Assembly: GCA_049516635.1 (NCBI GenBank)
Contig: JBEKSX010000002.1
Coordinates: forward strand, 3,768 to 67,767
Source of the DNA: Ignavibacteria bacterium
Lineage (GTDB): Bacteria > Bacteroidota > Ignavibacteria > Tepidaquicellales > OLB5
Length of the DNA: 64,000 bases
Direction of reading: 5' to 3'
Part shown: positions 7,886-26,517 of the stretch, one piece after another
Layout: each line of letters opens with the position of its first letter
How positions within the stretch are numbered: the first letter of the stretch is position 1
The notes under the pieces: generated by a model
The model's database searches: none
Seen by the model: the letters and a program-made list of their open reading frames with translations, nothing else
Told to the model about the DNA's origin: nothing
Translations under genes and position numbers: made by a program

Positions 7886-8674
7886 CTACACTTCTACTGT
7901 TAGTCCGTCATAAGCGAGCTGTATGTTCTGAGGTAATTTTGCATTAGCTTCATCATGCAGTACGTCGTGCGTAAAGTGTGTGAAATATGTCTGTTTCGCA
8001 TTTATTCTCAAGGAAACTTCGGTTGCCTCGCTTATCGAAAAATGTGTCGGGTGCGGACGGTACCTGAGTGCGTCTATTACGAGCAATTTCAATCCTTCAA
8101 GCTTCGGAAATTCCTTTTCAGGGATCTTGCTGCAATCGGTAATATATGCAAAGTCACCTATCCTGTATCCATAAATCATTGCCGGTCCGTGGTAATACTC
8201 AATGGGAATAATTTCCACATGACCTATTTTGAATTTGTTGAGCCCGATGATGTTCATATGTATATCCGGTATACCGCCGCCTTTAAATGTATTCTCATCG
8301 AAAATATACCTGAAGGTTATTTTAAGCTGTTTAATTGTTTCTTCGTTTCCATACATCTCTACGGTTTTTCTGTGGAGCTGGTTTATGTGGCTAATATCAT
8401 CCAGTCCCATAATATGATCGATATGGTGATGTGTATAGAGCACCGCATCTATATCATCCAGGTTATTCATCAGCATCTGCTGTCTGAAATCCGGTGACGT
8501 ATCGATGAGAAGCTTTAAGGTCTTTCCGCTATTGTTCTTATCCGGGTCTGATTCAATATAAACCGATACACGAAATCTTTTATCCTTAGGGTTGGATGAT
8601 GTGCAGGTCGGGCACTTGCATCCTATCATAGGAACTCCCTTCGAAGTTCCGCTGCCCAATATGATCACCCTCAT
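7886..8674 (-). CDS. MBL-fold metallo-hydrolase
   Basis: The 262-aa ORF has the HHHIDH metal-binding motif, an N-terminal ILGSGTS.G.P and a CKCPTC Cys cluster as in PhnP-like MBL proteins. Confidence 0.75.
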   Translation of the reverse strand: MRVIILGSGTSKGVPMIGCKCPTCTSSNPKDKRFRVSVYIESDPDKNNSGKTLKLLIDTSPDFRQQMLMNNLDDIDAVLYTHHHIDHIMGLDDISHINQLHRKTVEMYGNEETIKQLKITFRYIFDENTFKGGGIPDIHMNIIGLNKFKIGHVEIIPIEYYHGPAMIYGYRIGDFAYITDCSKIPEKEFPKLEGLKLLVIDALRYRPHPTHFSISEATEVSLRINAKQTYFTHFTHDVLHDEANAKLPQNIQLAYDGLTVEV

Positions 8675-9030
8675 TCGGGGTCCCCTTCTTCATCGGATCC
8701 TTCATCTGCTTCCTCCGTGATTTCTTCGTCCGGTAATTTTGCCTTTGCGCTTTCTCTCTCTATTACTTCGCGTACATTAGGTTTTATGAATATACTGTCG
8801 ATCCCTATCTCCTTGAGATTTCTTGAGATAATGGATATTCTTCTTTCGACCTCGTTCTTTGTATTGATAACGAATAGACGCGATTCCATCAGAAGGCAGT
8901 AGCCGCCTTCGAAGTCACCCTTTTCATACCTTAATTTATAACCGAGCCTTTGCACAATATCTTCTAACTCTGCAAGAAGCTGTTTTAATTCCGGGTCAAT
9001 CGGCTTTTTTTTCTTTTGCATCTGCGTCAA
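8671..9030 (-). CDS. hypothetical protein with acidic C-terminal tail
   Basis: The 119-aa ORF overlaps the downstream MBL gene start by 4 nt, which suggests translational coupling. I recognised no family. Confidence 0.4.
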   Translation of the reverse strand: MTQMQKKKKPIDPELKQLLAELEDIVQRLGYKLRYEKGDFEGGYCLLMESRLFVINTKNEVERRISIISRNLKEIGIDSIFIKPNVREVIERESAKAKLPDEEITEEADEGSDEEGDPE

Positions 9031-9547
9031 CAGATCTCCTTAAGGGTTTGAAAACGGCAAGTGCAATTATCGTGTAATAACAGAGCAGTGCTATTATCGG
9101 GACGCCGCTCAATGCACCGAGCCTGTTACCGAATATCCTTAATAGTTCATCGTGGTTTGGCGGATGGGAATAATACAGCAATATGAACTTGACGTCAAGG
9201 TAACAGGTGTAAGATTCCACCGGGACGAACATGAAGAATAATATTGCACTCATTATCAGCCACCCGTTCTCCCTGAATTTCAGCTTTGTGGTTTTGATGA
9301 ACCACAGAACACAGATAAAAACAAGGGTATAGCTGCTGATGATGACTATCGAGGAATATGCCAATAGCTGGAATAGTGTGTTCTCCCTGTCAGGCGGAAT
9401 CCCGGTCTTGAACTTGAACTGATCGTAGATGAGAAGCTCGTTGCCTATTATAGCCCTTATATTTATTCCGCCGAGCCAGAATATTGCAGCGATTATAAGA
9501 AGCGTTAGGGCAAATTTATTGGATCTTGATTGTGCGGTTTCATTCAT
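8996..9547 (-). CDS. hypothetical integral membrane protein
   Basis: The 183-aa ORF has about 4 hydrophobic helices. No diagnostic motif was seen. Confidence 0.45.
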   Translation of the reverse strand: MNETAQSRSNKFALTLLIIAAIFWLGGINIRAIIGNELLIYDQFKFKTGIPPDRENTLFQLLAYSSIVIISSYTLVFICVLWFIKTTKLKFRENGWLIMSAILFFMFVPVESYTCYLDVKFILLYYSHPPNHDELLRIFGNRLGALSGVPIIALLCYYTIIALAVFKPLRRSVDADAKEKKAD

Positions 9548-9700
9548 GTGTGTACAAATTATGAAAAAAGAATCAGTGATTCAATCCAAAGCTAAGGGAA
9601 GTATCCCACCAGACCTGGAGGCTAAATAATAATAAAACAAAACCTGGCGGGTTTCCTCAACCTGTCAGGTTTTTGTAAAAACATTTTTATAGCAGGCTTA

Positions 9701-10165
9701 TTAATGCAGAACAGTACCTTCCTGAATACTCTTCAGGTCGGTTTCACGCAGGTCAATACCGTACTCCAGAAAAGTTTTCAGGTTAGTAAGATAGAACGTC
9801 CATCCGTTGCTGCAGCCTAAGTGTGTAGCCGATTTATGTTCCTCTGTAATTGGAATATTATACTGACGCAGGTTCACAAGCGAACCCCGTTTATCTTTTT
9901 TGATCTCTACTTCACAGATACTTCCCGCAAAAGTAAAAATAAGCTTAGTCGGCTTGCGAATGTTCAATATCTGGCCGGAATCTTTATAACCGCCAAGCCA
10001 CGTCCATTCATAAGAGCCGTCTTTTTTCAAATGCATTTTAGCGTCCGAAACCAGCCATTTGGACATTAATTTCGGGTCGGTCCACATCCTGAATACTTTT
10101 TCGGCTGGTGCCGCAACAGCTACCCGTTGAGTAAACTGAGACCAATCATATTTTTTGCTAGGCAT
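9701..10165 (-). CDS. SRPBCC / Aha1-domain (activator of Hsp90 ATPase homolog 1-like) protein
   Basis: The 154-aa ORF has the pattern F...TDP....W and the W.GGY..SG.I....P...L.F.F architecture typical of AHSA1/SRPBCC proteins. Confidence 0.6.
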   Translation of the reverse strand: MPSKKYDWSQFTQRVAVAAPAEKVFRMWTDPKLMSKWLVSDAKMHLKKDGSYEWTWLGGYKDSGQILNIRKPTKLIFTFAGSICEVEIKKDKRGSLVNLRQYNIPITEEHKSATHLGCSNGWTFYLTNLKTFLEYGIDLRETDLKSIQEGTVLH

Positions 10166-10344: not shown

Positions 10345-10674
10345 TTACTTCGTTTTTATGTTAGAGCTTACCTGTTGGGCTGCGGCAACAACATTATTTT
10401 CAGCTATTTCCGGCTGGTTCTGCTGTTCTTTTTTGGTCTTTTTCAGTATACCGTAAGGAATAATGACACAGTATCCCAGTACCAGTAATATGGGTGATAT
10501 TACGGTAGCAAGGGTTCCATCTACAGTATCTTCAGCCATGAGTATGTAACCGAGAACCAGTACAACTATGCCGATACCTATTATTATGTAATTTATCCTC
10601 TCAAAAGGAAAAGTAATTTCTTTTTTGGTTTTACCCTGTGTTTTTTTAACCTTTGATGCTGTCTTTGCTGCCAT
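10345..10674 (-). CDS. small membrane protein (DUF3098-like)
   Basis: The 109-aa ORF has a basic N-terminus, then F.F...NY.....G..V...GY.LM and a second TM helix. It resembles the FCB-group DUF3098 family by eye. Confidence 0.4.
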   Translation of the reverse strand: MAAKTASKVKKTQGKTKKEITFPFERINYIIIGIGIVVLVLGYILMAEDTVDGTLATVISPILLVLGYCVIIPYGILKKTKKEQQNQPEIAENNVVAAAQQVSSNIKTK

Positions 10675-10688
10675 TGTTTATTATATAT

Positions 10689-12062
10689 TTACTTTAAATT
10701 AGCAAGTTCATTGTAAAAAATCGAGGAAGTAATTATACCTCTTTGAAAATTATCCAGATCCATATGTTCATCGGGAGAATGCGAGTTTTCGTCGGGCAGA
10801 CCAAAACCGAGCAGAACGGCAGGCGCTTGAAGCTGTACCTGGAAAGTTTCTACTATGGGTATTGAACCGCCATTGCGTATGAATACAGGATCTTTACCGA
10901 ATGCCTGCTTAAGAGCTTTAAAGGCTGCCTTTATCCATTTGCTGTCCATGGGCGTTATTGCCGGTTTTCCGTGATGCAGACCTTTAACTTCTATCTTAAC
11001 CGTTTTCGGAGTAATTTTTTTTATGTAAGCTTCAAAAAGTTTTGCGATCTTTTCCGGTTCCTGATCGGGTACCAGACGCATACTTATTTTAGCATATGCT
11101 TTTGAAGGCAGTACGGTTTTTGCACCTTCACCTGTGAAGCCTCCCCATATGCCGTTGCAGTCGAGCGTAGGTCTTGACCACATTCGCTCTATTGTTGAGT
11201 ATCCCTGCTCACCGAACAGCTCTTCGACGCCAAGCCTTATCTTGAACGCTTTATCTTCGAACGGAAGCCTGGCTAGTTCTTTTCTCTCCATTTCACTGAG
11301 CACGCGGACGTCATCATAAAATCCGTCTATCAGTATTTTCCCATCCCTGTCCTTAAGCTTCGAGATTATATAGGAAAGTGCATTGATCGGGTTATCCACA
11401 GTACCACCGTAAGTTCCGGAATGAAGGTCATGGTTTGGACCCGTTACTTCTACCTGCATATAACACAAACCCCTTAACGCATAACAGATTGCCGGCATCT
11501 CATGGTCATACATGGCTGTATCGGAAATGACAACTACATCGGCTTTTAAAAGATCTTTATGGCTATCGATGAAATCTTCGAGATGTTCACTTCCAATTTC
11601 TTCTTCCCCTTCTACAATCATCTTTACATTCACCGGCAAAGACTTATTCATCTTCAGGTGAGCTTCGAGGGCTTCTATATGTATCAGCACCTGTCCCTTA
11701 TCATCGGCAGAACCGCGGGCAAAAATATTATTGCCTCTTATCTCAGGTTCAAAAGGCGGGGTTGTCCATAGCTCGATAGGATCAACCGGCTGAACATCAT
11801 AATGGCCATATATCAGAATTGTGGGTTTATCCTTTCCTGCATCAAGCCAATCGGAGTAGACGACGGGATGTCCTCCTGTGGGATATGCTTTAGCATTATG
11901 CATGCCGATGTTTTCAAAACGTTGTTTAATAAACTCCGCACATGCGGCAACATCACCTTTGTTTTCAGGATTGGTGCTTATACTCGGGAACCGCAGCAAT
12001 TCTTTCAGGTCTTCAAGATACCTGTTCCTGTTCGATTCGATAAACTTTAGGATTTCGTCCAT
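10689..12062 (-). CDS. M20-family dipeptidase
   Basis: The 457-aa ORF has the motifs GHYDVQP, RGS.DDKG and EGEEE.GS, and a C-terminal HSPDE typical of M20/ArgE/DapE-type dipeptidases. Confidence 0.85.
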   Translation of the reverse strand: MDEILKFIESNRNRYLEDLKELLRFPSISTNPENKGDVAACAEFIKQRFENIGMHNAKAYPTGGHPVVYSDWLDAGKDKPTILIYGHYDVQPVDPIELWTTPPFEPEIRGNNIFARGSADDKGQVLIHIEALEAHLKMNKSLPVNVKMIVEGEEEIGSEHLEDFIDSHKDLLKADVVVISDTAMYDHEMPAICYALRGLCYMQVEVTGPNHDLHSGTYGGTVDNPINALSYIISKLKDRDGKILIDGFYDDVRVLSEMERKELARLPFEDKAFKIRLGVEELFGEQGYSTIERMWSRPTLDCNGIWGGFTGEGAKTVLPSKAYAKISMRLVPDQEPEKIAKLFEAYIKKITPKTVKIEVKGLHHGKPAITPMDSKWIKAAFKALKQAFGKDPVFIRNGGSIPIVETFQVQLQAPAVLLGFGLPDENSHSPDEHMDLDNFQRGIITSSIFYNELANLK

Positions 12063-12068
12063 GAAGTC

Positions 12069-13556
12069 CTATTGCTTTCCCTGTAACTTAGCTAATTGGT
12101 CCTTTGCATCCTGATTGTCGGGTTGTATCTCAAGAACTTTTTGGTAAGCGGCTATTGCTTCCGGTCTCTTGCCCATCGCGGCATAACAGTTCCCTATCCA
12201 GAGATATGAATAAGCAAAACTCGGATCGATTTCGACGCTCTTCTGCAGCGGGACAAGGGCCTGATCGTAATTCTGGAGGTAGTAGTAGCATAACCCTTCA
12301 TAAACATAAACACCAAGGTTTTTTATCCCCAGGGCTAACGATTTGTCTATCCTGGTGAGTGCATCGTTATACTTCTGGTCGCTGAACAGCGCTTTACCAT
12401 ATTCAAAGTAGGCGTTCTCGTCCGTCGAATCCAGCGCTATTGCTTTATTGAAATATGTATATGCCTTCGTGAATTCTTTCTGGTCAACGAATATTTTTGC
12501 GTATTTTGTATAGTCTTCAGAGTTAAAATCTTCGGGTTTAATTTTATCAAAATATGCTTGTGCCTGATCGTAATCTTTCTTCTCAATGTAAATGTACGCT
12601 TTATATTTGTTCGCTTCGCTGGAACTCGGGTCTGTCTTTAACACTTCGTCAAGGAGCGTCATTGCAGAGTCGAGCTTTCCCATGGCATAATAGGTTTTAG
12701 CATAATATGTTTCCCCTCTGGTTGAGCCGGGTCTCAGCTCTGCGTATTTCTTGAATGCATCGAGTGCCGAGTTATAATCATCCGCAAGATATAGTATCAA
12801 ACCCTTTTCAAAATATGCATTTGCATATTGATTATCGGCACTGATAGCTTTTGAGTAGAAATCGAGTGCATCATTATACTTTTTCTGTTTGTAAGCTACC
12901 ATTCCCAGTCCGTAATATGCCGGTGCAAAATTGTGCATCTTGTTCAGTGCAAGCTTATAATTATTTACAGCCGGCTCTAAAGCTCCCCTGACCAGGTAAG
13001 CATCCCCCAGACCTACATAGATGAGGGGGTTATTAATATCATATGTCTTTGCCTGCGTCAGCGAAGCAATGGCTTTATCCACTTTTCCTGCAGCAATGGA
13101 ATTATCAGCTTCCTGGCTTAAGATCTCCACGATCAAAGAAATTTCACTTTTATCGAGGTCTTCGGCGGTTTTATTTAATGGCAAAAACTTCTTAGCTTCA
13201 GCAAATTTTGACGCCGCATCGTCATACTTTTTCTGTTCAGAATATACCTCGCCTAAAATTTCATAAGCTTCGGGTCTTTCATTATCTATCCCGACAGCAT
13301 TGTTTAAATATTTCTCAGCTTCTGCAAGTGAACCGGTCTTCTGCAGAGCAATGCCATAGTAAAGATTCGCATTATATGAATTTTGATCTGTACCCACTGC
13401 CGATTTGAGGAGCCCGACTGCAGTAATATAATCTCCCTGTTTGACCGCAGCGATTCCTTGCTCCAGCTTATCCTGCGAATAACTCTGAACAACACCAAAT
13501 ATGCAAATTAACGCCAGCGCTATTAAAATATTTTTTTTGCTCACAAATTTGTACAT
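12069..13556 (-). CDS. TPR-repeat protein
   Basis: The 495-aa ORF has a signal peptide and more than 10 TPR units (A...Y.KA....P....AY...G). Confidence 0.75.
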   Translation of the reverse strand: MYKFVSKKNILIALALICIFGVVQSYSQDKLEQGIAAVKQGDYITAVGLLKSAVGTDQNSYNANLYYGIALQKTGSLAEAEKYLNNAVGIDNERPEAYEILGEVYSEQKKYDDAASKFAEAKKFLPLNKTAEDLDKSEISLIVEILSQEADNSIAAGKVDKAIASLTQAKTYDINNPLIYVGLGDAYLVRGALEPAVNNYKLALNKMHNFAPAYYGLGMVAYKQKKYNDALDFYSKAISADNQYANAYFEKGLILYLADDYNSALDAFKKYAELRPGSTRGETYYAKTYYAMGKLDSAMTLLDEVLKTDPSSSEANKYKAYIYIEKKDYDQAQAYFDKIKPEDFNSEDYTKYAKIFVDQKEFTKAYTYFNKAIALDSTDENAYFEYGKALFSDQKYNDALTRIDKSLALGIKNLGVYVYEGLCYYYLQNYDQALVPLQKSVEIDPSFAYSYLWIGNCYAAMGKRPEAIAAYQKVLEIQPDNQDAKDQLAKLQGKQ

Positions 13557-17376: not shown

Positions 17377-18660
17377 CTAATGTTGAACGGCTCTTACAAG
17401 CCAGTCCGAAGTAACTGATTTTGGCCTGTGTATCGGGAATCCCGCAGCCCTGTCAAGAATAAGCTGTGCCGTTAATCCCAGCACCCTGGAAACACCGAAC
17501 AGCAGCGTATAATAATCAAACTCTGTGATTCCGAAATAATGCAGCAGCGCTCCCGATGATGCGTCTACGTTAGGCCATGGATTTTTTGCCTTGCCGCCTT
17601 CCATCAATACCTTCGGCACTATCTCGAACAGTTTTTCGACTATCCTGAAGCAATCATCCTCAGGCATAACACGCTTGCCGTATTCAAGGAACGCAGTAAA
17701 CCTGGGGTCGGTGACTCTCAATACCGCATGACCGTAGCCGGGTATCACCCTTCCGCTCGAAAGCGTTTCTACAACATAATCCCTCAGTGATTTATCATCC
17801 GGCACACCGCCAAACTTTTGGTGCACATCCAGAACAAATCGTATCCCTTCCTGGTTCGCAAGTCCGTGAAGCGGACCCGCCAGACCGCACAACCCCGCTA
17901 CAACGGAATAGTACGGGTCGGCAAGAGCCGAGTTCACTACATGGCACGTACGCGCGCTTACGTTTCCCCCTTCGTGATCGCAGTGAAGAACCATGAACAG
18001 TCGCATCAGGTTCTTAAACTCATCCGGATTTTTTTCCACTCCCATCATGTTAGCGAAGTCTGCTGCCCAATCGAGGTCCATTTTAGAACTGATCAGGGGA
18101 CCTTTATCAAATCTCAGCCTGTATATTCCCGCCGCTAGCGTGGGAAGCATCGCTATCAGATCCAGCGAATCCTCAAGTGCATATTCCCAAAATTTATCTT
18201 TCTTCATACCGCGTGAATAATTGTAAGCAAACTTCGATTCACGCTCAAGAATTGCGATGCAGGAGATCAATATCGTCATCGGGTGCGGGTCATCCTTTAT
18301 CAAACAGGTCTTTAATGTTGACCACAGGTACTGAGGAACTTTGGAACGTGCTTTTAATTCTGACTGGAGGTCTTCGAGCTCTGCCTTCGTCGGAAGATCA
18401 CCGGTCAGAAGCAAAAAATAAATTTCTTCGGGTAACTTTTCCGTTAGCTCTTTTATCGGGTAACCCCTGATGATCAATCCCTGGTCGACGATCACTTCAG
18501 ATGTATCGCACAACAAAGATTTCACGCCTCTTAACCCGCCAAGCAGCTGCCCGACAGTAACATCGGAAATAACCTTTGTACCGTAATTTTCGATCAGGCT
18601 GTGTGTTCTCTCACGAAGCTGAGGTATCTGTGATGCTAATTTTTCTTTTAATAATGACAA
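17377..18660 (-). CDS. gltA: citrate synthase
   Basis: The 427-aa ORF has the signatures HCDHEGGNVSA, GYGHAVLR and the GPLHGLANQ region diagnostic of type I citrate (Si)-synthase. Confidence 0.9.
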   Translation of the reverse strand: MSLLKEKLASQIPQLRERTHSLIENYGTKVISDVTVGQLLGGLRGVKSLLCDTSEVIVDQGLIIRGYPIKELTEKLPEEIYFLLLTGDLPTKAELEDLQSELKARSKVPQYLWSTLKTCLIKDDPHPMTILISCIAILERESKFAYNYSRGMKKDKFWEYALEDSLDLIAMLPTLAAGIYRLRFDKGPLISSKMDLDWAADFANMMGVEKNPDEFKNLMRLFMVLHCDHEGGNVSARTCHVVNSALADPYYSVVAGLCGLAGPLHGLANQEGIRFVLDVHQKFGGVPDDKSLRDYVVETLSSGRVIPGYGHAVLRVTDPRFTAFLEYGKRVMPEDDCFRIVEKLFEIVPKVLMEGGKAKNPWPNVDASSGALLHYFGITEFDYYTLLFGVSRVLGLTAQLILDRAAGFPIHRPKSVTSDWLVRAVQH

Positions 18661-19082
18661 CTTTTTGTTCCCCTAAGAGTTAAAATACATTTTAAGGATA
18701 GCAAATATATTTAGATTTTCTATAATTATAAAGGGTAAAGTTATTTTTATTATACTTTATTTCCTGTTGATACAAGCCTCACGCTGATTGAATTCCAGAA
18801 CTCTTTCTTATTGCTGCATCTGTTAATCCCAATAAATACAATAACTTATATCGTTATCAGGAACTGTATTAATAAATCAGTCATATCACCTCAAGAGATC
18901 ACACAAATTATAACAAAAAAATCTTTTTTACAAAAGGCAGGAACCGGGAATATAATGGAGCTGGTCCGGCTTGATACGAATACTTACGAATTCGGTGGCT
19001 GCCGGGAATGGCTTAAAAGATTTTTTTATAGAGCTGTGTAGTACAAATTGTCCCCCCTTTACGAAAGGGGGGGTAGGGGGGT

Positions 19083-19706
19083 TCAATTTATATTATTAAC
19101 TATTTTTCTAGCCTTTTCTCGGTAAGTTTCATAATTTCCCAACGAATACTTATAATGCCTATAAAATGGTATTAACGGCCTGTTTAGTTTATTTTCATCA
19201 GGGGGGATTGGAATACTGGTTTTACATTCGTAAAATTCTATAGGTTTATAATAAATAGAATTATTGAACCTTAAAGCTTTATATAAGCATTCAGACGTAA
19301 GCAGAACAGGAATATCCGTGTGAAACCTACTCAACTCTATTTTCAGATAAGGTATCCAATATTCTGCTACTTGGTACCAAATTTTGTTTTTAGCAGTTTC
19401 TTTTTGGAAATAGTTCTTACACAGATTTTGGCAGTAAACATTATCTAGGTTTAATCCGATTTGATTCAATTGTGATTTGATTCTTTCAATTGATGAATTG
19501 AAAATATTCTTATGACTTTCTATTGCAAACACATACTTTAAAGTGTTTGAATGTCTGTTACTTGGATCACATCCTAAAAGTATCGATTTCGGATTTTTAA
19601 TATCTGGTTTATAAGCAGATGGAAATGGGTAGTTATTTAATATTTCATCACCAAATCTGCCTTTAAGCTCTTTTAAAATTGTTAAATCTTCTTCTAATTT
19701 CATCAT
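19083..19706 (-). CDS. hypothetical protein with uracil-DNA-glycosylase-superfamily-like motifs
   Basis: The 207-aa ORF has LLGCDPS (res 43-49, motif A-like), NVYCQNLCKNY (res 89-99, like family-4 ..TN..KC), IPVLLTS (res 132-138) and FYRHYKYS (res 181-188, motif B His-like), in the order and spacing of the UDG fold. This is a motif-level inference only. Confidence 0.45.
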   Translation of the reverse strand: MMKLEEDLTILKELKGRFGDEILNNYPFPSAYKPDIKNPKSILLGCDPSNRHSNTLKYVFAIESHKNIFNSSIERIKSQLNQIGLNLDNVYCQNLCKNYFQKETAKNKIWYQVAEYWIPYLKIELSRFHTDIPVLLTSECLYKALRFNNSIYYKPIEFYECKTSIPIPPDENKLNRPLIPFYRHYKYSLGNYETYREKARKIVNNIN

Positions 19707-19793
19707 TTTAATGTTTTTTTATTAAAATAGTCCCCTTTACAAACTTTATAAACTTTTAAACCTTATAAACTTTACTAACTGCTGATTTTCAAC

Positions 19794-20363
19794 TTAATGC
19801 AATATATAATCTATATCCAGCACAGTCAGAAACCCGTCACCGTCGATATCGCCTTTATCAATAGTACCCGCGCACTCGTGGCATGAGTAGATCGTTTTCA
19901 AATATTTTTTCTCTATCAGCTTCGGTATGATGTCATAGAACTTAGGCTCACCGGGATACAACGTCATGTAAAACTCATACAGACCTAAAGTGCCTTTATT
20001 TGAGTTACATTCGGGACATGCACGCACCTGGTTATGTATCGCCTGTAACTTATCACAGGACACACATTCCGGTTTTATTTTTAGTGACCCCGGAACAATA
20101 TGCTCCCAGTTCATAACATCATCCCCCTTCCCGCAGTACGCGCAATTGCGACTATCTGCTTCCATTAATTGCTTATCCTCTCGAATTATATCTGACCACG
20201 ATTTGGAACCGAATTTTAAACCCTTGAAAGTGCTCTTGATAAACCCGTAATGCCTGTATTTAGCTTCCACTCCGTCCGGTAGCTCAAAGGCACTTTTTGC
20301 AATAATTTTTGAGTACTGGTAATATATCAGTTCTCTTATAGTTTTAACTCCACGGTCCGGCAT
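19794..20363 (-). CDS. HNH endonuclease with C-terminal EF-hand/dockerin-like Ca-binding loop
   Basis: The 189-aa ORF has CAYCG (C74, C77), WEH (H88), HN (H110, N111) and CPECNSNKG (C116, C119), which together form an HNH/zinc motif. The C-terminal DIDGDGFLTVLD (res 172-183) fits the 12-residue DxDxDGxLxxxD loop. Confidence 0.8.
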   Translation of the reverse strand: MPDRGVKTIRELIYYQYSKIIAKSAFELPDGVEAKYRHYGFIKSTFKGLKFGSKSWSDIIREDKQLMEADSRNCAYCGKGDDVMNWEHIVPGSLKIKPECVSCDKLQAIHNQVRACPECNSNKGTLGLYEFYMTLYPGEPKFYDIIPKLIEKKYLKTIYSCHECAGTIDKGDIDGDGFLTVLDIDYILH

Positions 20364-20513
20364 GTGAGAAAAGGATAATAATTATATTGATATAAATCTA
20401 TTTCTTATTTATAGTAAATATAGTAATTTATTGCTACAAATAATATATTTTAACCATAGGACATTAATAATTGTTCTTATTAAAATATTCTTTTAGTTAG
20501 AACGGATCTTTAA

Positions 20514-21374
20514 ATGACTAAAGTTAAGTTCAACCCAATAATTCCAGTAAAAAACGATGACTTATTTGTAGAACAAGTTGGGGAATGGGCAAAAGAAAAG
20601 TATAGTTTAGTTGGAGTTTATTGTGATATATTTACAAAAAGTATGAAATCAAGATGGGGTAACTTAGTTTATATTGATCTCTTTGCTGGTTGTGGTTACT
20701 CACGTATAAAGGACACAAAAACATATATTAAATCATCCCCTTTAATTGCCCTTTCAGTCCCAAATAAATTTACTAAATATATCTTTTGTGAAGAAAATAA
20801 TGAAAAATGCAAATCATTAGAAAGAAGAATTAAAGGAGAGTATAATGATTTAAATTACATTATAATTAAAGGTGACTGTAATAAAAGAGTAGAATCAATA
20901 AAGAATGCATTGCCTAAATATAGTAAAAATAATACAGTATTATCTTTTTGTTTTGCTGACCCATACGCCATGAGTAATTTAAACTTTATAACTATTGAAA
21001 GATTATCACAATTCATGATCGATTTTCTAATTCTAATTCCGACAGGAATGGATGCTAGAAGAAATTTGAAATATTACTTAGATGGAAACAATGAAACTGT
21101 AGACTACTTTATTGATAATAGAGACTGGAGAGAAAAATTTAGAAAAACATATAAAGAAAACAACCAATCCTTCGTAAGCTTTCTTAAAGAGATATATTCA
21201 AATAAAATGGTTTCACTAGGTTATAAAGAACCAGGATCCTTTCATTTAATAAAATCTATAAATAAGAATTTGCCATTATACCATTTAGCTTTTTTTTCAA
21301 AACATGCATTAGGTAATAAGTTTTGGGATGCAGTAAATGAATATTCGAGTCAGCAAGTTGAATTATTTAGTTAA
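20514..21374 (+). CDS. three-Cys-motif partner protein TcmP-like
   Basis: The 286-aa ORF has the W..EK...L..Y region, then VYIDLFAGCGYS (res 52-63, MTase motif I-like) and FCFADPYA (motif IV-like). It sits 2 nt upstream of a Gp37/Gp68 gene, the defining context of TcmP. Confidence 0.65.
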   Translation: MTKVKFNPIIPVKNDDLFVEQVGEWAKEKYSLVGVYCDIFTKSMKSRWGNLVYIDLFAGCGYSRIKDTKTYIKSSPLIALSVPNKFTKYIFCEENNEKCKSLERRIKGEYNDLNYIIIKGDCNKRVESIKNALPKYSKNNTVLSFCFADPYAMSNLNFITIERLSQFMIDFLILIPTGMDARRNLKYYLDGNNETVDYFIDNRDWREKFRKTYKENNQSFVSFLKEIYSNKMVSLGYKEPGSFHLIKSINKNLPLYHLAFFSKHALGNKFWDAVNEYSSQQVELFS

Positions 21375-21376
21375 TC

Positions 21377-22117
21377 ATGTCTAAATCAAAAATTGAGTGG
21401 ACTGAAGTTACGTGGAACCCTGCTACGGGATGCAATAAGGTATCACCCGGCTGTAAATACTGCTATGCCGAGGTTTTCGCTAAGAGACTGCAGGGAATGG
21501 GAGTCAATAAATATGAGAACGGCTTTGAGTTAACTTTACAGCCCGATGTCCTGAATTTACCAAAAAGATGGCGGGGGAATAAAACTGTATTTGTTAACAG
21601 CATGAGCGATCTTTTTCACGAAAACATACCTTTCGAGTATATCAAAAAAGTATTCAATGTAATGCATGAGTGCCCGCAGCACACATTTCAGGTTCTTACC
21701 AAAAGATCAGAAAGATTGTCCAAAATGGCAAATAAACTGACCTGGACACCCAATATCTGGATGGGTGTTTCGGTCGAGAACGAAGACTACACATTTAGAA
21801 TTGACCAATTAAGGAAGATACCTTCTAAAATTAAATTCTTATCATTAGAACCGCTCCTGGGTCCTTTACCTGATTTGAATCTAAAAAACATCGACTGGGT
21901 AATAGTCGGAGGCGAGTCAGGCAAAAAAGCCAGACCCATGCGAAGTGAATGGGTGCTGGATATTCAAAAGCAGTGTGGAGCAAAGAAGGTACTTTTCTTC
22001 TTTAAACAATGGGGCGGAATGAACAAAAAACTTACCGGACGTGAATTAAATGGCAGAACCTATGATGATATGCCCAGAAGAGCAAAAAACGATATGGAAC
22101 TGTTTCAGAATATATAA
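21377..22117 (+). CDS. phage Gp37/Gp68 family (DUF5131) three-Cys-motif protein
   Basis: The 246-aa ORF has the N-terminus IEWTEVTWNPATGCNKVSPGCKYCYAE, a family hallmark with C19-x6-C26-x2-C29. Later motifs are VFVNSMSDLFHE and DWVIVGGESG. Confidence 0.85.
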   Translation: MSKSKIEWTEVTWNPATGCNKVSPGCKYCYAEVFAKRLQGMGVNKYENGFELTLQPDVLNLPKRWRGNKTVFVNSMSDLFHENIPFEYIKKVFNVMHECPQHTFQVLTKRSERLSKMANKLTWTPNIWMGVSVENEDYTFRIDQLRKIPSKIKFLSLEPLLGPLPDLNLKNIDWVIVGGESGKKARPMRSEWVLDIQKQCGAKKVLFFFKQWGGMNKKLTGRELNGRTYDDMPRRAKNDMELFQNI

Positions 22118-22403
22118 GCATTTACTAAGCTTAATCTGCTAAAGTCTGTGTAATCTGTGTTCTGTTCCCCTCACCTTCCTAGCTCCCATGCCTTCCCGCT
22201 GTAGCTACAGCTTATGCGGGCGGTTCAGCCCCGCTAACCTTTTCACGGTAATTTTCACATAACCTCAAAAACAGCAGTATTTTTCAGTGTAAAAATTCGT
22301 CCCCCTCTTGACAAACGGGAAAAAGTTATTTAGATTTATGATAAGCTGATTAATTCAGAAAATAAAAGTGCGTTCTTTGACATAATTCAACTATTCTCCT
22401 CTT

Positions 22404-22911: not shown

Positions 22912-25900
22912 CTAGCTGCATCCGCTTGTCTCGCCGCACGTAGTGCACTTGAGACATGTACCGTTGCGTACCATCGTGAAGCTTCCGCAGGAAGAACAAA
23001 CATCGCCGGAATAACCTTTGAGCTTCGCTTCTTTTATCATCTCAATCTTATCCGATTGCGTCTTCACCTGCGGTGTCTGCGGGTAACCCGGCGGTATCAT
23101 TCTCAGCGGGTCGGGATCCGCCGGAACCTTCCGCGGGTCTTCTTCGATAATACGTTCGCTGTATATCTCCTCCTCATCGAAGTCCGCTTCCTTGTCGAGC
23201 TTGGAGATAGAATCGATGGGACTGGTATGCAGTTCGCTCTCCGATGCTATCTGTGCGAGGTCGGTCCTGCCGAGATATGTAACAGCGAGCTCACGGAAAA
23301 TATAATCTATTATCGATGTTGTCATCTTGATGTTCGGATTCCCGATGACGATACCGTTCGGCTCGAAACGTGTGAACACAAAAGCATCCACAAATTCCTC
23401 GAGCGGAACACCATGCTGGAGACCCAGCGAGATTGCGATCGCAAAACAGTTCATTAAGCTTCTGAATGCAGCGCCCTCGCGGTGCATATCGATGAATATT
23501 TCGCCTATTTGTCCGTTCTCATATTCGCCAGTGCGGAGGTAAACGGAATGGTTGCCTATCTTTGCTTTCTGAGTGTAGCCTCTCCGTCTGAACGGGAGTT
23601 TCCTCCGCTTTGCGATATACCGGTGGATTATCCTCTCGGCTATCCTGATGATATCGTTCGACTTGGAGAGCGGTTCGCTGTAATCGGAATCATCATTGCC
23701 GCCGTTCTCGCTCACGCTGTTAAGAGGCTGTGAAAGCTTTGAACCGTCACGGTAAAGCGCGTTCGCTTTCAGTCCCAGCGACCATGAGAGCATGTAGGCA
23801 CGCTTCATATCCTCAATTGATGCTTCGTTGGGAAGATTAATGGTCTTTGATATCGCGCCGGAGATGAACGGCTGCGCCGCCGCCATCAGTTTGATGTGCG
23901 CTTCTGCAGAGATGTATCTGGTCCCGGTTCTGCCGCATTTATTTGCACAGTCGAATATCGGGTAATGAAGCTCTTTAAGATGAGGTGCGCCTTCTATCGT
24001 CATTGTTCCGCAGATGTAATCGTTTGCTTCTTCTATCTGCTCTTTTGAAAATCCGATCGCCCTGAGCATGTTGAAATTGAAATCATCCAGCTGTTCCTCT
24101 TTGAAGCCGAGAACGTTATGGCAGAAATCCGAGCCCAGTGTCCACTTATTGAACGTGAAGTTTATATCGAAGACCGATGGGAGACTTTTCTCCACCAGGC
24201 TGATGACATCTTTCGTAAATCCTTTTTCGGCTAAGCTCTGTACGTTGATATGGGGACAGTTAGCAAGCGTACCGTGACCCTTTGTGTACTTGATAATATC
24301 ATTTATCTCCATTTCGGTATAGCCGAGCTTCTCAAGTGCGGGCGGAACAGATTCGTTGATTATCTTAAAGTATCCGCCGCCTGCAAGTTTTTTGAACTTC
24401 ACGAGAGCGAAATCGGGTTCCACACCGGTCGTATCGCAGTCCATCACGAGACCGATGGTGCCCGTAGGTGCTATCACGGTGACCTGTGCGTTCCTGTAAC
24501 CGTATTTTTCACCTAGCTGAAGAGCACGGTCGGCATCCTGTCTTGCGGCATTGAGAAGATCATCAGGGCAGAACTTTTTGTTTATGCCCATGGGCATTAT
24601 GGAAAGTCCCTCATATTCTTCGGAAGGCGAATTATAAGCGGCACGCCTGTGATTTCTTATGACGCGCAGCATACTGGATTCGTTCTCTTTGTACCTGGGG
24701 AAAGGACCAAGCTCCATTGCCATTTCCGCTGACGTTGCGTAAGCCCTCATGTGCATCATTGCTGTGAGAGCACCGGTGATTGCAAGCGCTTCATTTGAAT
24801 CATAGGGAATGCCTTGGAGCATAAGCAGAGCGCCGAGATTTGCGTAACCGAGACCGAGTGTCCTGTAATCATAAGAGAGCTTTGCTATCTTCCTGCTGGG
24901 GAACTGCGCCATGAGCACACTTATCTCCAGCACGATCGTCCACAGCCTTACGGCATGGCGGTACTTCTCCGTCTCGAAAACGTTTTTATCGAGGTCATAA
25001 AACTTTACCAGGTTGACGGATGCAAGGTTGCAGGCGGTATCATCCAGGAACATATATTCGGAGCACGGGTTAGATGCTTTTATCTCCCCGCCCTTCGGGC
25101 AGGTGTGCCACTCATTAATAGTGGTATGGAACTGCATGCCGGGGTCGGCACAGGACCAGGCGGAATATGCTATCTGGTCCCATAATTCGCGTGCTTTTAA
25201 GGTTTTGCTGGCAACCGGTTTGCGTCCTTCGAGCTTTGATTTGACAAGCTCCGTACGCCAGTAGAGGTTCCAGTCGCCGCCTGATGCGACCGCATTCATG
25301 AAATCGTTTGTTGCGCGGACACTGTTGTTGGAGTTTTGCCCGGATACCGTCACGTATGATTCTGAGTTCCAGTCCGTATCATAGACGGGAACATAAATTT
25401 CTTTAACGCCAAGCCTCGCGAGATGGATGACGCGCTCGATATAATTTTCGGGGATCATGCAACGGTGTGCATCGGCTATCGCTTTAGCAAGCTGTTTATT
25501 GCTCTTCCTGTCGAAAGGATCGTTCTCGGGATGAGAAGGTTCGCATGCGCGGATGATGTTATTGAGATGTATGTTTAGCATGCGTGAGCCTGCAACGAGG
25601 TCAGCTACTTTCTGCTCCTCGATAACTTTCCAGTTAATGTATTCTTCTATATCAGGGTGGTCGAGATCGAGCGTAACCATTTTTGCAGCTCTTCGTGTAG
25701 TGCCTCCGGATTTAATTGCACCGGCACTCCGATCACCGATCTTGAGAAACGACATTAATCCCGATGATTTTCCCCCGCCGCTGAGCGGTTCGTTTGTTCC
25801 GCGCAGGTTAGAAAAGTTCGTACCCGTACCAGAACCGTACTTAAATAAACGCGCTTCTCTAACCCAGAGGTCCATGATGCCGCCTTCGTTGACGAGATCA

Positions 25901-26517
25901 TCTGTAATTGACTGGATGAAACATGCATGAGGCTGAGGATGTGTGTACGCATCTTCCGATGCACGTACTTCACCGGTTTGGGGATCAGAGTAATAATGGC
26001 CCTGCGGCGGTCCGGTTATTCCGTACGCCCAATTGAGACCTGTATTAAACCATTGAGGTGAGTTAGGCGCAGCCGTCTGCATGGCAAGCATGTAGCAAAG
26101 CTCGTTATAAAAATTTCTTGCATCTGCTTCATTGTCAAAATACTGGTTCTTCCATCCCCAGTATGTCCAGCATCCTGCAAGACGATGGAAGACCTGTCTC
26201 GAGTCGGTCTCGGAAGTATATCTTTCTTCCGGCGAGACCTCGTTCATTTTTTCTCTATCCTCTTCCGAGCGGCTCAGCCAGTCAGGAACATTTTCTTCTT
26301 TAATTTTCTTAAGAAATTTAGGAACTCCGGCTTTGCGGAAATATTTTTGCGATATGATATCGGTAGCAACCTGTGACCATTGTCTCGGAACAATAATATC
26401 GATCATCTCAAATACGATCGAACCGTCGGGGTTTCTGATTACTGAAGTGCGTTTTACGAATTCTATGTTCCCAAAAGGATCTTTTCCTTCTTCAACTAAA
26501 AAACTTTTGATCTTCAT
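22912..26517 (-). CDS. nrdJ: adenosylcobalamin-dependent (class II) ribonucleotide reductase
   Basis: The 1201-aa ORF has the active-site region [22 protein letters not shown], a GGGTG finger-loop context and a C-terminal Cys-rich tail CSSCGS...CLKCTTCG typical of long NrdJ proteins. Confidence 0.9.

Follow-up and report, generated by a model that had tools for sequence, protein, structure and literature searches.

Antiviral DNA glycosylases of the uracil-DNA glycosylase (UDG) superfamily have recently been described. Brig1 (Hossain et al. 2024, PMC11078745) acts on alpha-glucosyl-5-hydroxymethylcytosine, Brig2 (Getz et al. 2025, 10.1101/2025.10.29.685425) defends against Pseudomonas phages with hypermodified thymidine, and Brig3 (Mejia-Pitta et al. 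2026, 10.64898/2026.02.25.707755) acts on 5-hydroxymethylcytosine (5hmC). Here we analyze a UDG-like gene (positions 19083 to 19706) in a stretch of 64,000 nucleotides from an Ignavibacteria bacterium (assembly GCA_049516635.1, contig JBEKSX010000002.1, positions 3,768 to 67,767 of the forward strand), the whole of which we refer to as the window. An earlier sequence-only reading of this DNA had taken the encoded protein for a divergent member of the UDG superfamily with a possible role against phages, citing antiphage DNA glycosylases as a precedent, and the published Brig proteins make that precedent a real one. We describe the fold, conservation pattern, defense-type gene contexts and sporadic distribution of the family to which the gene belongs, and we lean toward the view that it encodes a stand-alone, monofunctional antiviral DNA glycosylase of the UDG superfamily that would act on a non-canonical pyrimidine. 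As Brig1, Brig2 and Brig3 are published, the concept of an antiviral UDG glycosylase is no longer new; what is new is the family, not the principle.

According to the open reading frame (ORF) listing of the window, the gene starts with ATG, encodes 207 amino acids and lies on the minus strand; the sequence-only reading had placed it at the same coordinates and had given no strand. The four strings on which that reading was built, namely, LLGCDPS, NVYCQNLCKNY, IPVLLTS and FYRHYKYS, are all present in the protein at the residues it had named (Table 1). An AlphaFold2 model made from an alignment of 43 sequences (mean predicted local distance difference test score, 94.8; predicted template modeling score, 0.91) puts each of them at a motif place of the UDG fold (i.e., motif A, the strand-2 Asn, strand 3 and motif B, respectively). 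More specifically, the model begins with a strand at residues 41-45, followed by CDPS, and continues through a helix to a strand at residues 90-94 that ends with N94, then through a helix to a strand at 134-136, and through a further helix to a strand at 178-180, which is followed by FYRH and a last helix. The protein is thereby modeled as a four-stranded, parallel-sheet alpha/beta structure in which motif A follows strand 1 and motif B follows strand 4, as is the arrangement of the UDG superfamily.

Comparison of this model with solved structures by Foldseek returned the UDG superfamily without exception in the 50 PDB matches listed (UdgX, family 4, TDG, SMUG and UNG), with a best E value of 1.6e-5 and a probability of 1.00 for the first 37. 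Among these listed matches, those to UdgX and family 4 were best (structures 1L9G, 1UI0, 4ZBX and 6AIL; E values of ~2e-5, template modeling [TM] scores of 0.53-0.63 and ~12% identity), TDG reached TM-scores of ~0.5, and SMUG and UNG were weaker (0.32-0.45; UNG alone, 0.32-0.42), the identities being mostly 8-15%. Structure matches in BFVD were phage UDG domains. At the level of sequence, the Pfam UDG model PF03167 matched residues 38-143 of the window protein over profile positions 7-96 (E=0.0013), with a score of 19.2 bits that is below the 24.3-bit gathering threshold; the same model matched 15 of 43 homologs (E<=0.1; best E=2.2e-5), and one homolog (P0003) has a precomputed PF03167 match. 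We also compared the family profile, using hhalign, with a family-4 profile built from TM0511, the sequence of which is identical to 1L9G, and its homologs. The two profiles aligned over 99 columns in local mode (E=1.7e-4, probability 50%) and again in global mode (E=1.3e-5, probability 59%), with all motifs in register.

Other searches were silent. The protein had no match in NCBIfam or PHROGs, its PADLOC match to Cas5g (E 0.012) was dismissed as chance-level, and sequence and profile searches of the PDB with the protein and with profiles A1 and A2 gave chance matches alone and no UDG. Homology to UDGs is thus detectable only via Pfam, hhalign and fold comparison. The UDG fold proposed by the sequence-only reading is borne out by the recurrent PF03167 signal, the alignment to family 4 and the top PDB matches listed. 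Both checks suggested there, a profile-profile comparison (here run as hhalign) and a comparison of an AlphaFold model with UDG structures, return UDGs, and neither places the protein confidently in an unrelated fold. We therefore regard it as next to certain that the window protein is a real, very divergent member of the UDG fold.

Conservation was counted in a diverse alignment of 76 members. G45, Y159 and R176 are invariant; D47, F60, N94, W110, P133 and Y187 are each kept in 75 members and R183 in 74, followed by P48, Q93 and Y195 (72), Y99 (71), Y91 and E124 (70), T137 (69), Ser or Thr at position 49 (67), and H184 (52; otherwise Asn, Gly or Ser). Each residue of the presumed catalytic set (i.e., G45, D47, F60, N94, R176, R183 and Y187) is accordingly present in at least 74 of the 76. 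The segment LGQDPYH...LAFSV of Escherichia coli Ung aligns to the family without gaps, such that D47 corresponds to D64 and F60 to F77; the Asp-to-Phe distance is 13 residues in both proteins, and the spacing from G45 to F60 equals that from G62 to F77 of Ung. Motif A, for which the sequence-only reading had denied a match to the GQDPY of UNG, is therefore nearer to UNG than was claimed, as G-x-D-P carries an Asp at the UNG position. Correspondence to family 4 extends over other parts of the protein: N94 aligns with the Asn of the family-4 NVVKC, and H184 and Y187 align with the His and Tyr of the family-4 HPSYLL. The proposed motif-B His thus holds by position, in that H184 aligns with the family-4 His, but not by conservation. 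Judged by these alignments and the model, the family joins a putative catalytic Asp of the UNG type to a core that is structurally nearer to family 4.

Cysteines set the family apart from family 4. C18, C21 and C105 are invariant in the family-4 alignment and C89 is nearly so, whereas just C46 (24/76) and C96 (52/76) are partly conserved in the UDG-like family. The lack of a conserved Cys set indicates that the family has no family-4-type Fe-S cluster. The parallel that the sequence-only reading had drawn to the N..KC segment of family 4 accordingly stops short of the cysteine, which is no Fe-S ligand here: C96 is variable, and there is no N-terminal CxxC.

The motif and profile tests agree with the earlier statement that the protein fits no canonical UDG family. 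Compared with family 1 (UNG), the Gln of GQDPY is replaced by Ala, Cys or Thr and its Tyr by Ser or Thr, and [FL][YF]R[H/x]xxY stands in place of HPSPLS; the likeness to UNG lies in a motif A with Asp as its third residue, the same motif-to-Phe spacing and an Asn ending strand 2. The G-[IM]-N-P-G of family 2 (MUG/TDG) and family 3 (SMUG1) is not found, the position being Asp in 75 of the 76 members and Asn in one, and hhalign gave no match to E. coli Mug. Family 4 supplies the best profile match, with the strand-2 Asn, strand 3 and the H..Y of motif B in register, but its motif A is GE[AG]PG rather than GxDP[ST], and its four 4Fe-4S Cys ligands are not conserved here. The GEQPG of UdgX is likewise absent; H184 is the sole partly conserved His of the family, and none is available to replace the covalent His109 of the UdgX KRRIH loop. 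Comparison of profile A1 with Brig1 (sequence taken from the supplement of the paper) gave an E value of 0.15 in a non-homologous register. As the family fails the defining motifs of families 1 to 4, UdgX and Brig1, we regard it as a family of its own within the superfamily. What is new here, as read from the alignments, is a distinct, unannotated sequence family with its own catalytic-motif combination, i.e., a putative UNG-type Asp, no Fe-S cluster, and R-x-x-x-Y in place of HPS. A literature search found no paper describing this family.

Comparison with the Brig proteins shows a recurring general likeness and differences in detail. Brig1 has a UDG fold, is a single gene located in defense islands and was annotated as a hypothetical protein, all as in the UDG-like family, and family-4 UDGs are the closest solved structures for both. 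In contrast, the two share no detectable sequence similarity; motif A of Brig1 is GLNPG, its base reader is Glu147 and its pocket residue Tyr121, compared with G-x-D-P-S/T and Asn94 in the UDG-like family, and its homologs are mostly from Actinobacteria, whereas ours are mostly from Bacteroidota and Ignavibacteriota. Brig2, compared by its description, is likewise a UDG-fold antiviral of mobile or defense regions, and the phages with 5-substituted uracils that it acts against represent the substrate class that we favor here. Its homologs are mainly from Pseudomonadota (735) and Bacillota (274), fewer being from Bacteroidota (32), as opposed to no Pseudomonadota in 58 loci of the UDG-like family, a difference in taxonomic range that argues, if not decisively, against the family being Brig2. 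Brig3, again by its published description, resembles the family in its weak UDG-superfamily homology, its defense-island location, its need for an acidic residue, and an x-P-S loop near residue 50 that touches the flipped base; it differs in having Asn50 in the loop and its essential Asp at D127, whereas the Asp of the UDG-like family is in motif A itself, and in being paired with BapA, such a partner not having been seen for the UDG-like family. Newness with respect to Brig2 and Brig3 rests on taxonomy and on residue descriptions, and kinship with either, if it were found, would make the family a new member. Most likely, the family is new within a kind already established by Brig1, Brig2 and Brig3, with a taxonomic range and a set of associations (type I restriction-modification [R-M], McrBC, GmrSD, BREX and dCTP deaminase) of its own.

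The family is small and scattered. A word-indexed search gave 54 clusters, and an exhaustive hidden Markov model search of 1.84 billion representatives gave 319, 212 and 117 clusters at E-value cutoffs of 1e-3, 1e-10 and 1e-30, respectively; in a second profile search, members were unnamed or called "hypothetical protein" only. A scan of 185,579 species genomes found the gene in 58, which are spread over Bacteroidota, Ignavibacteriota, Chlorobiota and a few Bacillota. Daejeonella oryzae and Marinifilum fragile are among the bacteria with a homolog. No relatives were found in 50,697 phage records, 72,556 plasmids and 2.9 million viral contigs.

Support for an antiphage role comes from the gene neighborhoods across the family. 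We called and clustered ORFs in 54 loci and tallied Pfam families for the 133 neighbors within two genes of the UDG-like gene. The gene upstream is on the same strand in 41 of the 54 loci, within 60 base pairs (bp) in 22, and type I R-M subunits are found within four genes in 13. The most frequent neighbor families were N6_Mtase (9), Eco57I (8), Methylase_S (7), HsdM_N (7), SWI2_SNF2 (6), ResIII (6) and HSDR_N (5), followed by SLFN_AlbA_2, YhcG/DUF1016, PDDEXK_4 and AAA_15/21. One locus has the UDG-like start at the hsdM stop codon, with DUF1016, hsdS and two GmrSD genes downstream; in another the UDG-like gene adjoins GmrSD; in another type I R-M locus it lies inside, together with AAA_15/21, FRG, RhuM, HNH_2 and AbiEii; and in one more it follows an SLFN_AlbA_2 gene in a helicase/PLD (DISARM-like) cluster. 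Some members are fused to other domains. Two clusters (P0368 and P0379) have an N-terminal HEPN(pEK499_p136) domain, and one of these fusions (P0368; L080:6001-7095) lies between BREX genes (PglZ, BrxL) and a McrB-like/McrC pair; one protein (P0115, locus L068) is a fusion to HNH, and further fusions are to DUF6508 and DUF4160. An apparent 1118-residue fusion to an AAA_5 (McrB-like) protein (L051:8750-12106) was rejected, as its reading frame crosses a run of N (XXXX); the UDG-like and AAA_5 genes of that locus are merely adjacent, with a gene for a 425-residue protein after them. The gene is rare and patchy, has no fixed partner, and is found in restriction and defense operons and in fusions to effector domains. 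Such a pattern is typical for stand-alone defense genes and not for repair genes, and we consider a role in defense probable. Separately, loci L008 to L011 (e.g., L008:2763-5516) contain a four-gene cassette (an AAA_14/DUF4143 ATPase, a 110-residue protein, the UDG-like protein and an HD_4 protein) that is conserved across several wastewater and other metagenome contigs and may be a distinct multi-gene variant.

Assignments of catalysis, residue roles, substrate class and antiphage effect follow by analogy with UNG, family 4, Brig1 and Brig3. On these analogies, the protein is quite probably an active glycosylase, which would scan DNA and flip a non-canonical pyrimidine into its pocket. F60 would form the stacking face of the pocket, Q93-N94 would read the Watson-Crick face of the base, and the motif-A loop G45-x-D47-P48-[S/T]49 would lie over the glycosidic bond. 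Like Asp64/Asp145 of UNG, D47 would activate a hydrolytic water for removal of the base. The contacts that wedge the helix or hold the phosphates are made by His and Leu in UNG and by Arg in TDG and SMUG1; here, R176, R183 and Y187 around strand 4 could supply them, R183 and Y187 of the motif-B loop or R176 filling the gap in the helix or binding the backbone. In Brig3 the corresponding contact is supplied by Asn225 (10.64898/2026.02.25.707755). The resulting abasic sites would halt replication of the invading DNA and might be cut by host abasic-site endonucleases or, in some lineages, by adjacent or fused nucleases (HNH in the window; HNH or HEPN elsewhere).

As to the substrate, the Tyr of motif A in UNG excludes 5-substituted pyrimidines, and changes of this residue (Y147A, Y147C and Y147S) reportedly lead to thymine excision (Kavli et al. 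1996), while N204D is said to lead to cytosine excision. The Asn at position 94, as in UNG and unlike the Glu of Brig1, together with the Ser or Thr that replaces the UNG Tyr, favors uracil or a 5-substituted uracil over a cytosine derivative. We accordingly propose as a tentative possibility that the target is uracil or a 5-substituted uracil (hypermodified thymine). Several points weigh against our overall interpretation. This substrate step is the weakest of the argument, and the recurrent GmrSD and McrBC neighbors would fit a cytosine derivative equally well. Residue roles are drawn from remote alignments (hhalign probability, 50-59%), and the gapless alignment to Ung covers merely 29 columns (E 0.016). 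TM-scores to solved UDGs are just 0.5-0.63, and about one-third of members lack the motif-B His, by which families 1 and 4 stabilize the leaving base. In addition, the mean GC content of the UDG-like gene, at -1% relative to its surroundings over 30 long loci, is not clearly lower, so that a family-wide GC depression was rejected, though it is clear in the window. The glycosylase and antiphage activities are, for all members, deduced from sequence and context.

The rival that survives best, although we consider it unlikely, is that the protein is a defense glycosylase of the Brig1/Brig3 type whose targets are modified cytosines (5hmC, glucosyl-5hmC or similar) and not uracil-type bases. The gene recurs beside GmrSD and McrBC, type IV systems that target DNA with hmC or glucosyl-hmC, and the D47-P48-[S/T]49 of the family occupies nearly the same position as the N50-P51-S52 loop of Brig3, in which the Ser backbone reads the 5-hydroxymethyl group. 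It is opposed by the base-reading residue, which is Asn in 75 of the 76 members where Brig1 requires Glu147, by the Asn-to-Asp change in UNG that reportedly confers cytosine excision, and by the absence of sequence similarity to Brig1.

A little less likely still is an ordinary repair enzyme, i.e., a divergent uracil-DNA glycosylase that serves as a back-up and clears deaminated cytosine from host DNA. The Asp, Phe and Asn typical of uracil recognition are kept, UDG families are numerous and often redundant, and Brig1 and Brig3 retain residual uracil activity. Against this, the gene is very rare and patchily distributed (in 58 of the 185,579 species genomes), has no conserved housekeeping neighborhood, lies inside R-M, BREX and McrBC loci, is fused to HEPN or HNH in some cases, and is located in a low-GC island in the window.

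Two further claims we take jointly and consider improbable to much the same degree as the repair enzyme; the first concerns dCTP deaminases. In loci L026 and L027, the UDG-like gene lies directly beside a dCTP-deaminase defense gene (PADLOC dCTPase, E ~1e-125), in two Bacteroidales type I R-M operons with opposite gene orders: the deaminase and UDG-like genes are at 8024-9916 and 10001-10615 in L026, and at 10659-12554 and 9995-10639 in L027, respectively. The deaminases (631 and 632 residues) are 48% identical to each other and the UDG-like proteins 56%. This adjacency suggests a possible partnership of dUTP flooding and uracil excision. In such a two-step nucleotide poisoning, the deaminase would flood the cell with dUTP, phage DNA would become uracil-rich, and the UDG of the family would turn it into abasic, unreplicable DNA. 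The accompanying claim is that the family would represent a seventh catalytic type of UDG, with a family-4-like scaffold, no Fe-S cluster and a UNG-type Asp.

Less probable again is a catalytically weak or inactive base-flipping sensor that serves a partner nuclease (HNH, HEPN or McrBC) by flagging foreign DNA or by binding to abasic or modified sites, instead of being the effector. Such a role would suit the fusions to HNH and HEPN effector domains, the McrB-like genes that directly follow the UDG-like gene in L051 and L080, the variable motif-B His, and the HNH gene adjacent in the window; it is opposed by the retention of D47 in 75 of the 76 members, by the prevalence of single-domain genes with no constant partner, and by the fact that Brig1 and Brig3 work alone. 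A part in a DNA-modification pathway with TcmP/DUF5131, such as removing a base to make way for a modified one, to which the putative modification pair of the sequence-only reading points, is very unlikely: this pair lies beside the gene in the window, L027 and L029, and DUF5131 has sub-threshold matches to radical-SAM "mobile pair" models, yet the pair is absent from 56 of the 58 genome loci, the two units are divergently transcribed in the window, PADLOC treats the pair as a separate defense candidate (PDC-M41), and we know of no modification activity for it.

For the stand-alone antiviral glycosylase that we favor, the immediate neighbors in the window carry less weight than the sequence-only reading had given them. 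The UDG-like gene is part of a four-gene island (Table 1) with a GC content of 0.26-0.43, compared with mostly 0.45-0.51 in the two flanking genes. This arrangement recurs solely in metagenome contigs of the same organism (L014 to L018), and a neighbor in L014 has a Citrate_synt Pfam match. The HNH gene, which is possibly co-transcribed with the UDG-like gene, matches Pfam HNH_5 and HNH weakly, a PHROG for HNH endonuclease at 4.4e-10, and PADLOC PtuB weakly. We rejected it as a conserved partner, as it is adjacent only in L014 to L018 and was found by tblastn in none of the 58 genome loci; the window HNH protein shares only a CxxCNxxK stretch with the HNH tail of the fusion P0115. TcmP/DUF5131 was rejected likewise: tblastn found DUF5131 near the UDG-like gene in two of the 58 loci (L027 and L029), within type I R-M operons. 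With counts of 0/58 and 2/58, the argument from an adjacent HNH nuclease and a modification pair is weak, so that the case for an antiphage role has to come from the family-wide context; a role against phages through a non-standard base remains the best reading of the gene contexts, on a basis other than the window neighbors first cited for it.

Several features of the island may be recorded. The window HNH protein has a weak likeness to Septu PtuB and the IscB HNH region, and ends in a DIDGDGFLTVLDID stretch that resembles an EF-hand or dockerin-type calcium loop. In L027, a TcmP-like gene is also found near the UDG-like gene. Three overlapping copies of an 8- to 9-nucleotide unit (AAACTTTAT / AAACCTTAT) occur at 19741-19783, in the 87 bp that separate the UDG-like start from the HNH stop, and may serve as a promoter or operator. 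A perfect 9-bp hairpin (CCCCCCTTT-ACG-AAAGGGGGG; 19052-19072) starts ~10 nucleotides past the UDG-like stop codon; lacking a T-run after it, the hairpin was not called in a terminator scan. Direct repeats flanking the island (18570/22235 and 18703/22322) were rejected as att sites, since alignment of the flanks gave no extended similarity, and are taken as chance matches.

Table 1. Positions in the window of the UDG-like gene, its motifs and its neighbors
Feature	Window coordinates	Strand	Remarks
UDG-fold protein	19083..19706	-	207 residues; AlphaFold2, Foldseek, sub-threshold Pfam UDG
Motif A, LLGCDPS (residues 43-49)	19560..19580	-	Family consensus L-G-x-D-P-[S/T]; aligns with Ung LGQDPY and family-4 VGEGPG
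F60, presumed base-stacking Phe	19527..19529	-	Conserved in 75/76; gapless alignment to E. coli Ung F77
NVYCQNLCKNY (residues 89-99), end of strand 2	19410..19442	-	Q93-N94, N94 being the presumed base-recognition Asn
IPVLLTS (residues 132-138), central strand 3	19293..19313	-	Model strand 134-136; aligns with family-4 IVALGA
FYRHYKYS (residues 181-188), motif-B region after strand 4	19143..19166	-	R183 and Y187 kept; H184 variable
Low-GC four-gene island	18700..22250		Between citrate synthase (17377-18660) and class II ribonucleotide reductase (22912-26517)
HNH endonuclease gene	19794..20363	-	87 bp upstream of the UDG-like gene, same strand
TcmP (three-Cys-motif partner protein)	20514..21374	+	NCBIfam TIGR04474 1.5e-38; PADLOC candidate PDC-M41A 1.1e-28; divergent from the UDG-like and HNH genes
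DUF5131 protein, TcmP partner	21377..22117	+	Pfam PF07505 2.4e-100; PADLOC PDC-M41B/M30B; divergent from the UDG-like and HNH genes

Antiviral DNA glycosylases have been known only since 2024-2026 (Brig1 to Brig3 and the Dag families), and each new family has turned out to target a different modified base. The present family has been invisible to annotation, as it reaches no NCBIfam or PADLOC model and falls below the Pfam threshold. With its putative UNG-type Asp on a family-4-like core that lacks an Fe-S cluster, it should be useful for understanding how UDG specificity evolved, and an enzyme of the family could act as a reagent to map a modified base. The family is repeatedly tied to R-M, McrBC, GmrSD, BREX and dCTP-deaminase loci in Bacteroidota and their relatives, in which phage DNA modifications are poorly known; if the two-step poisoning of nucleotides were true, it would mirror in bacteria the logic of APOBEC/UNG.

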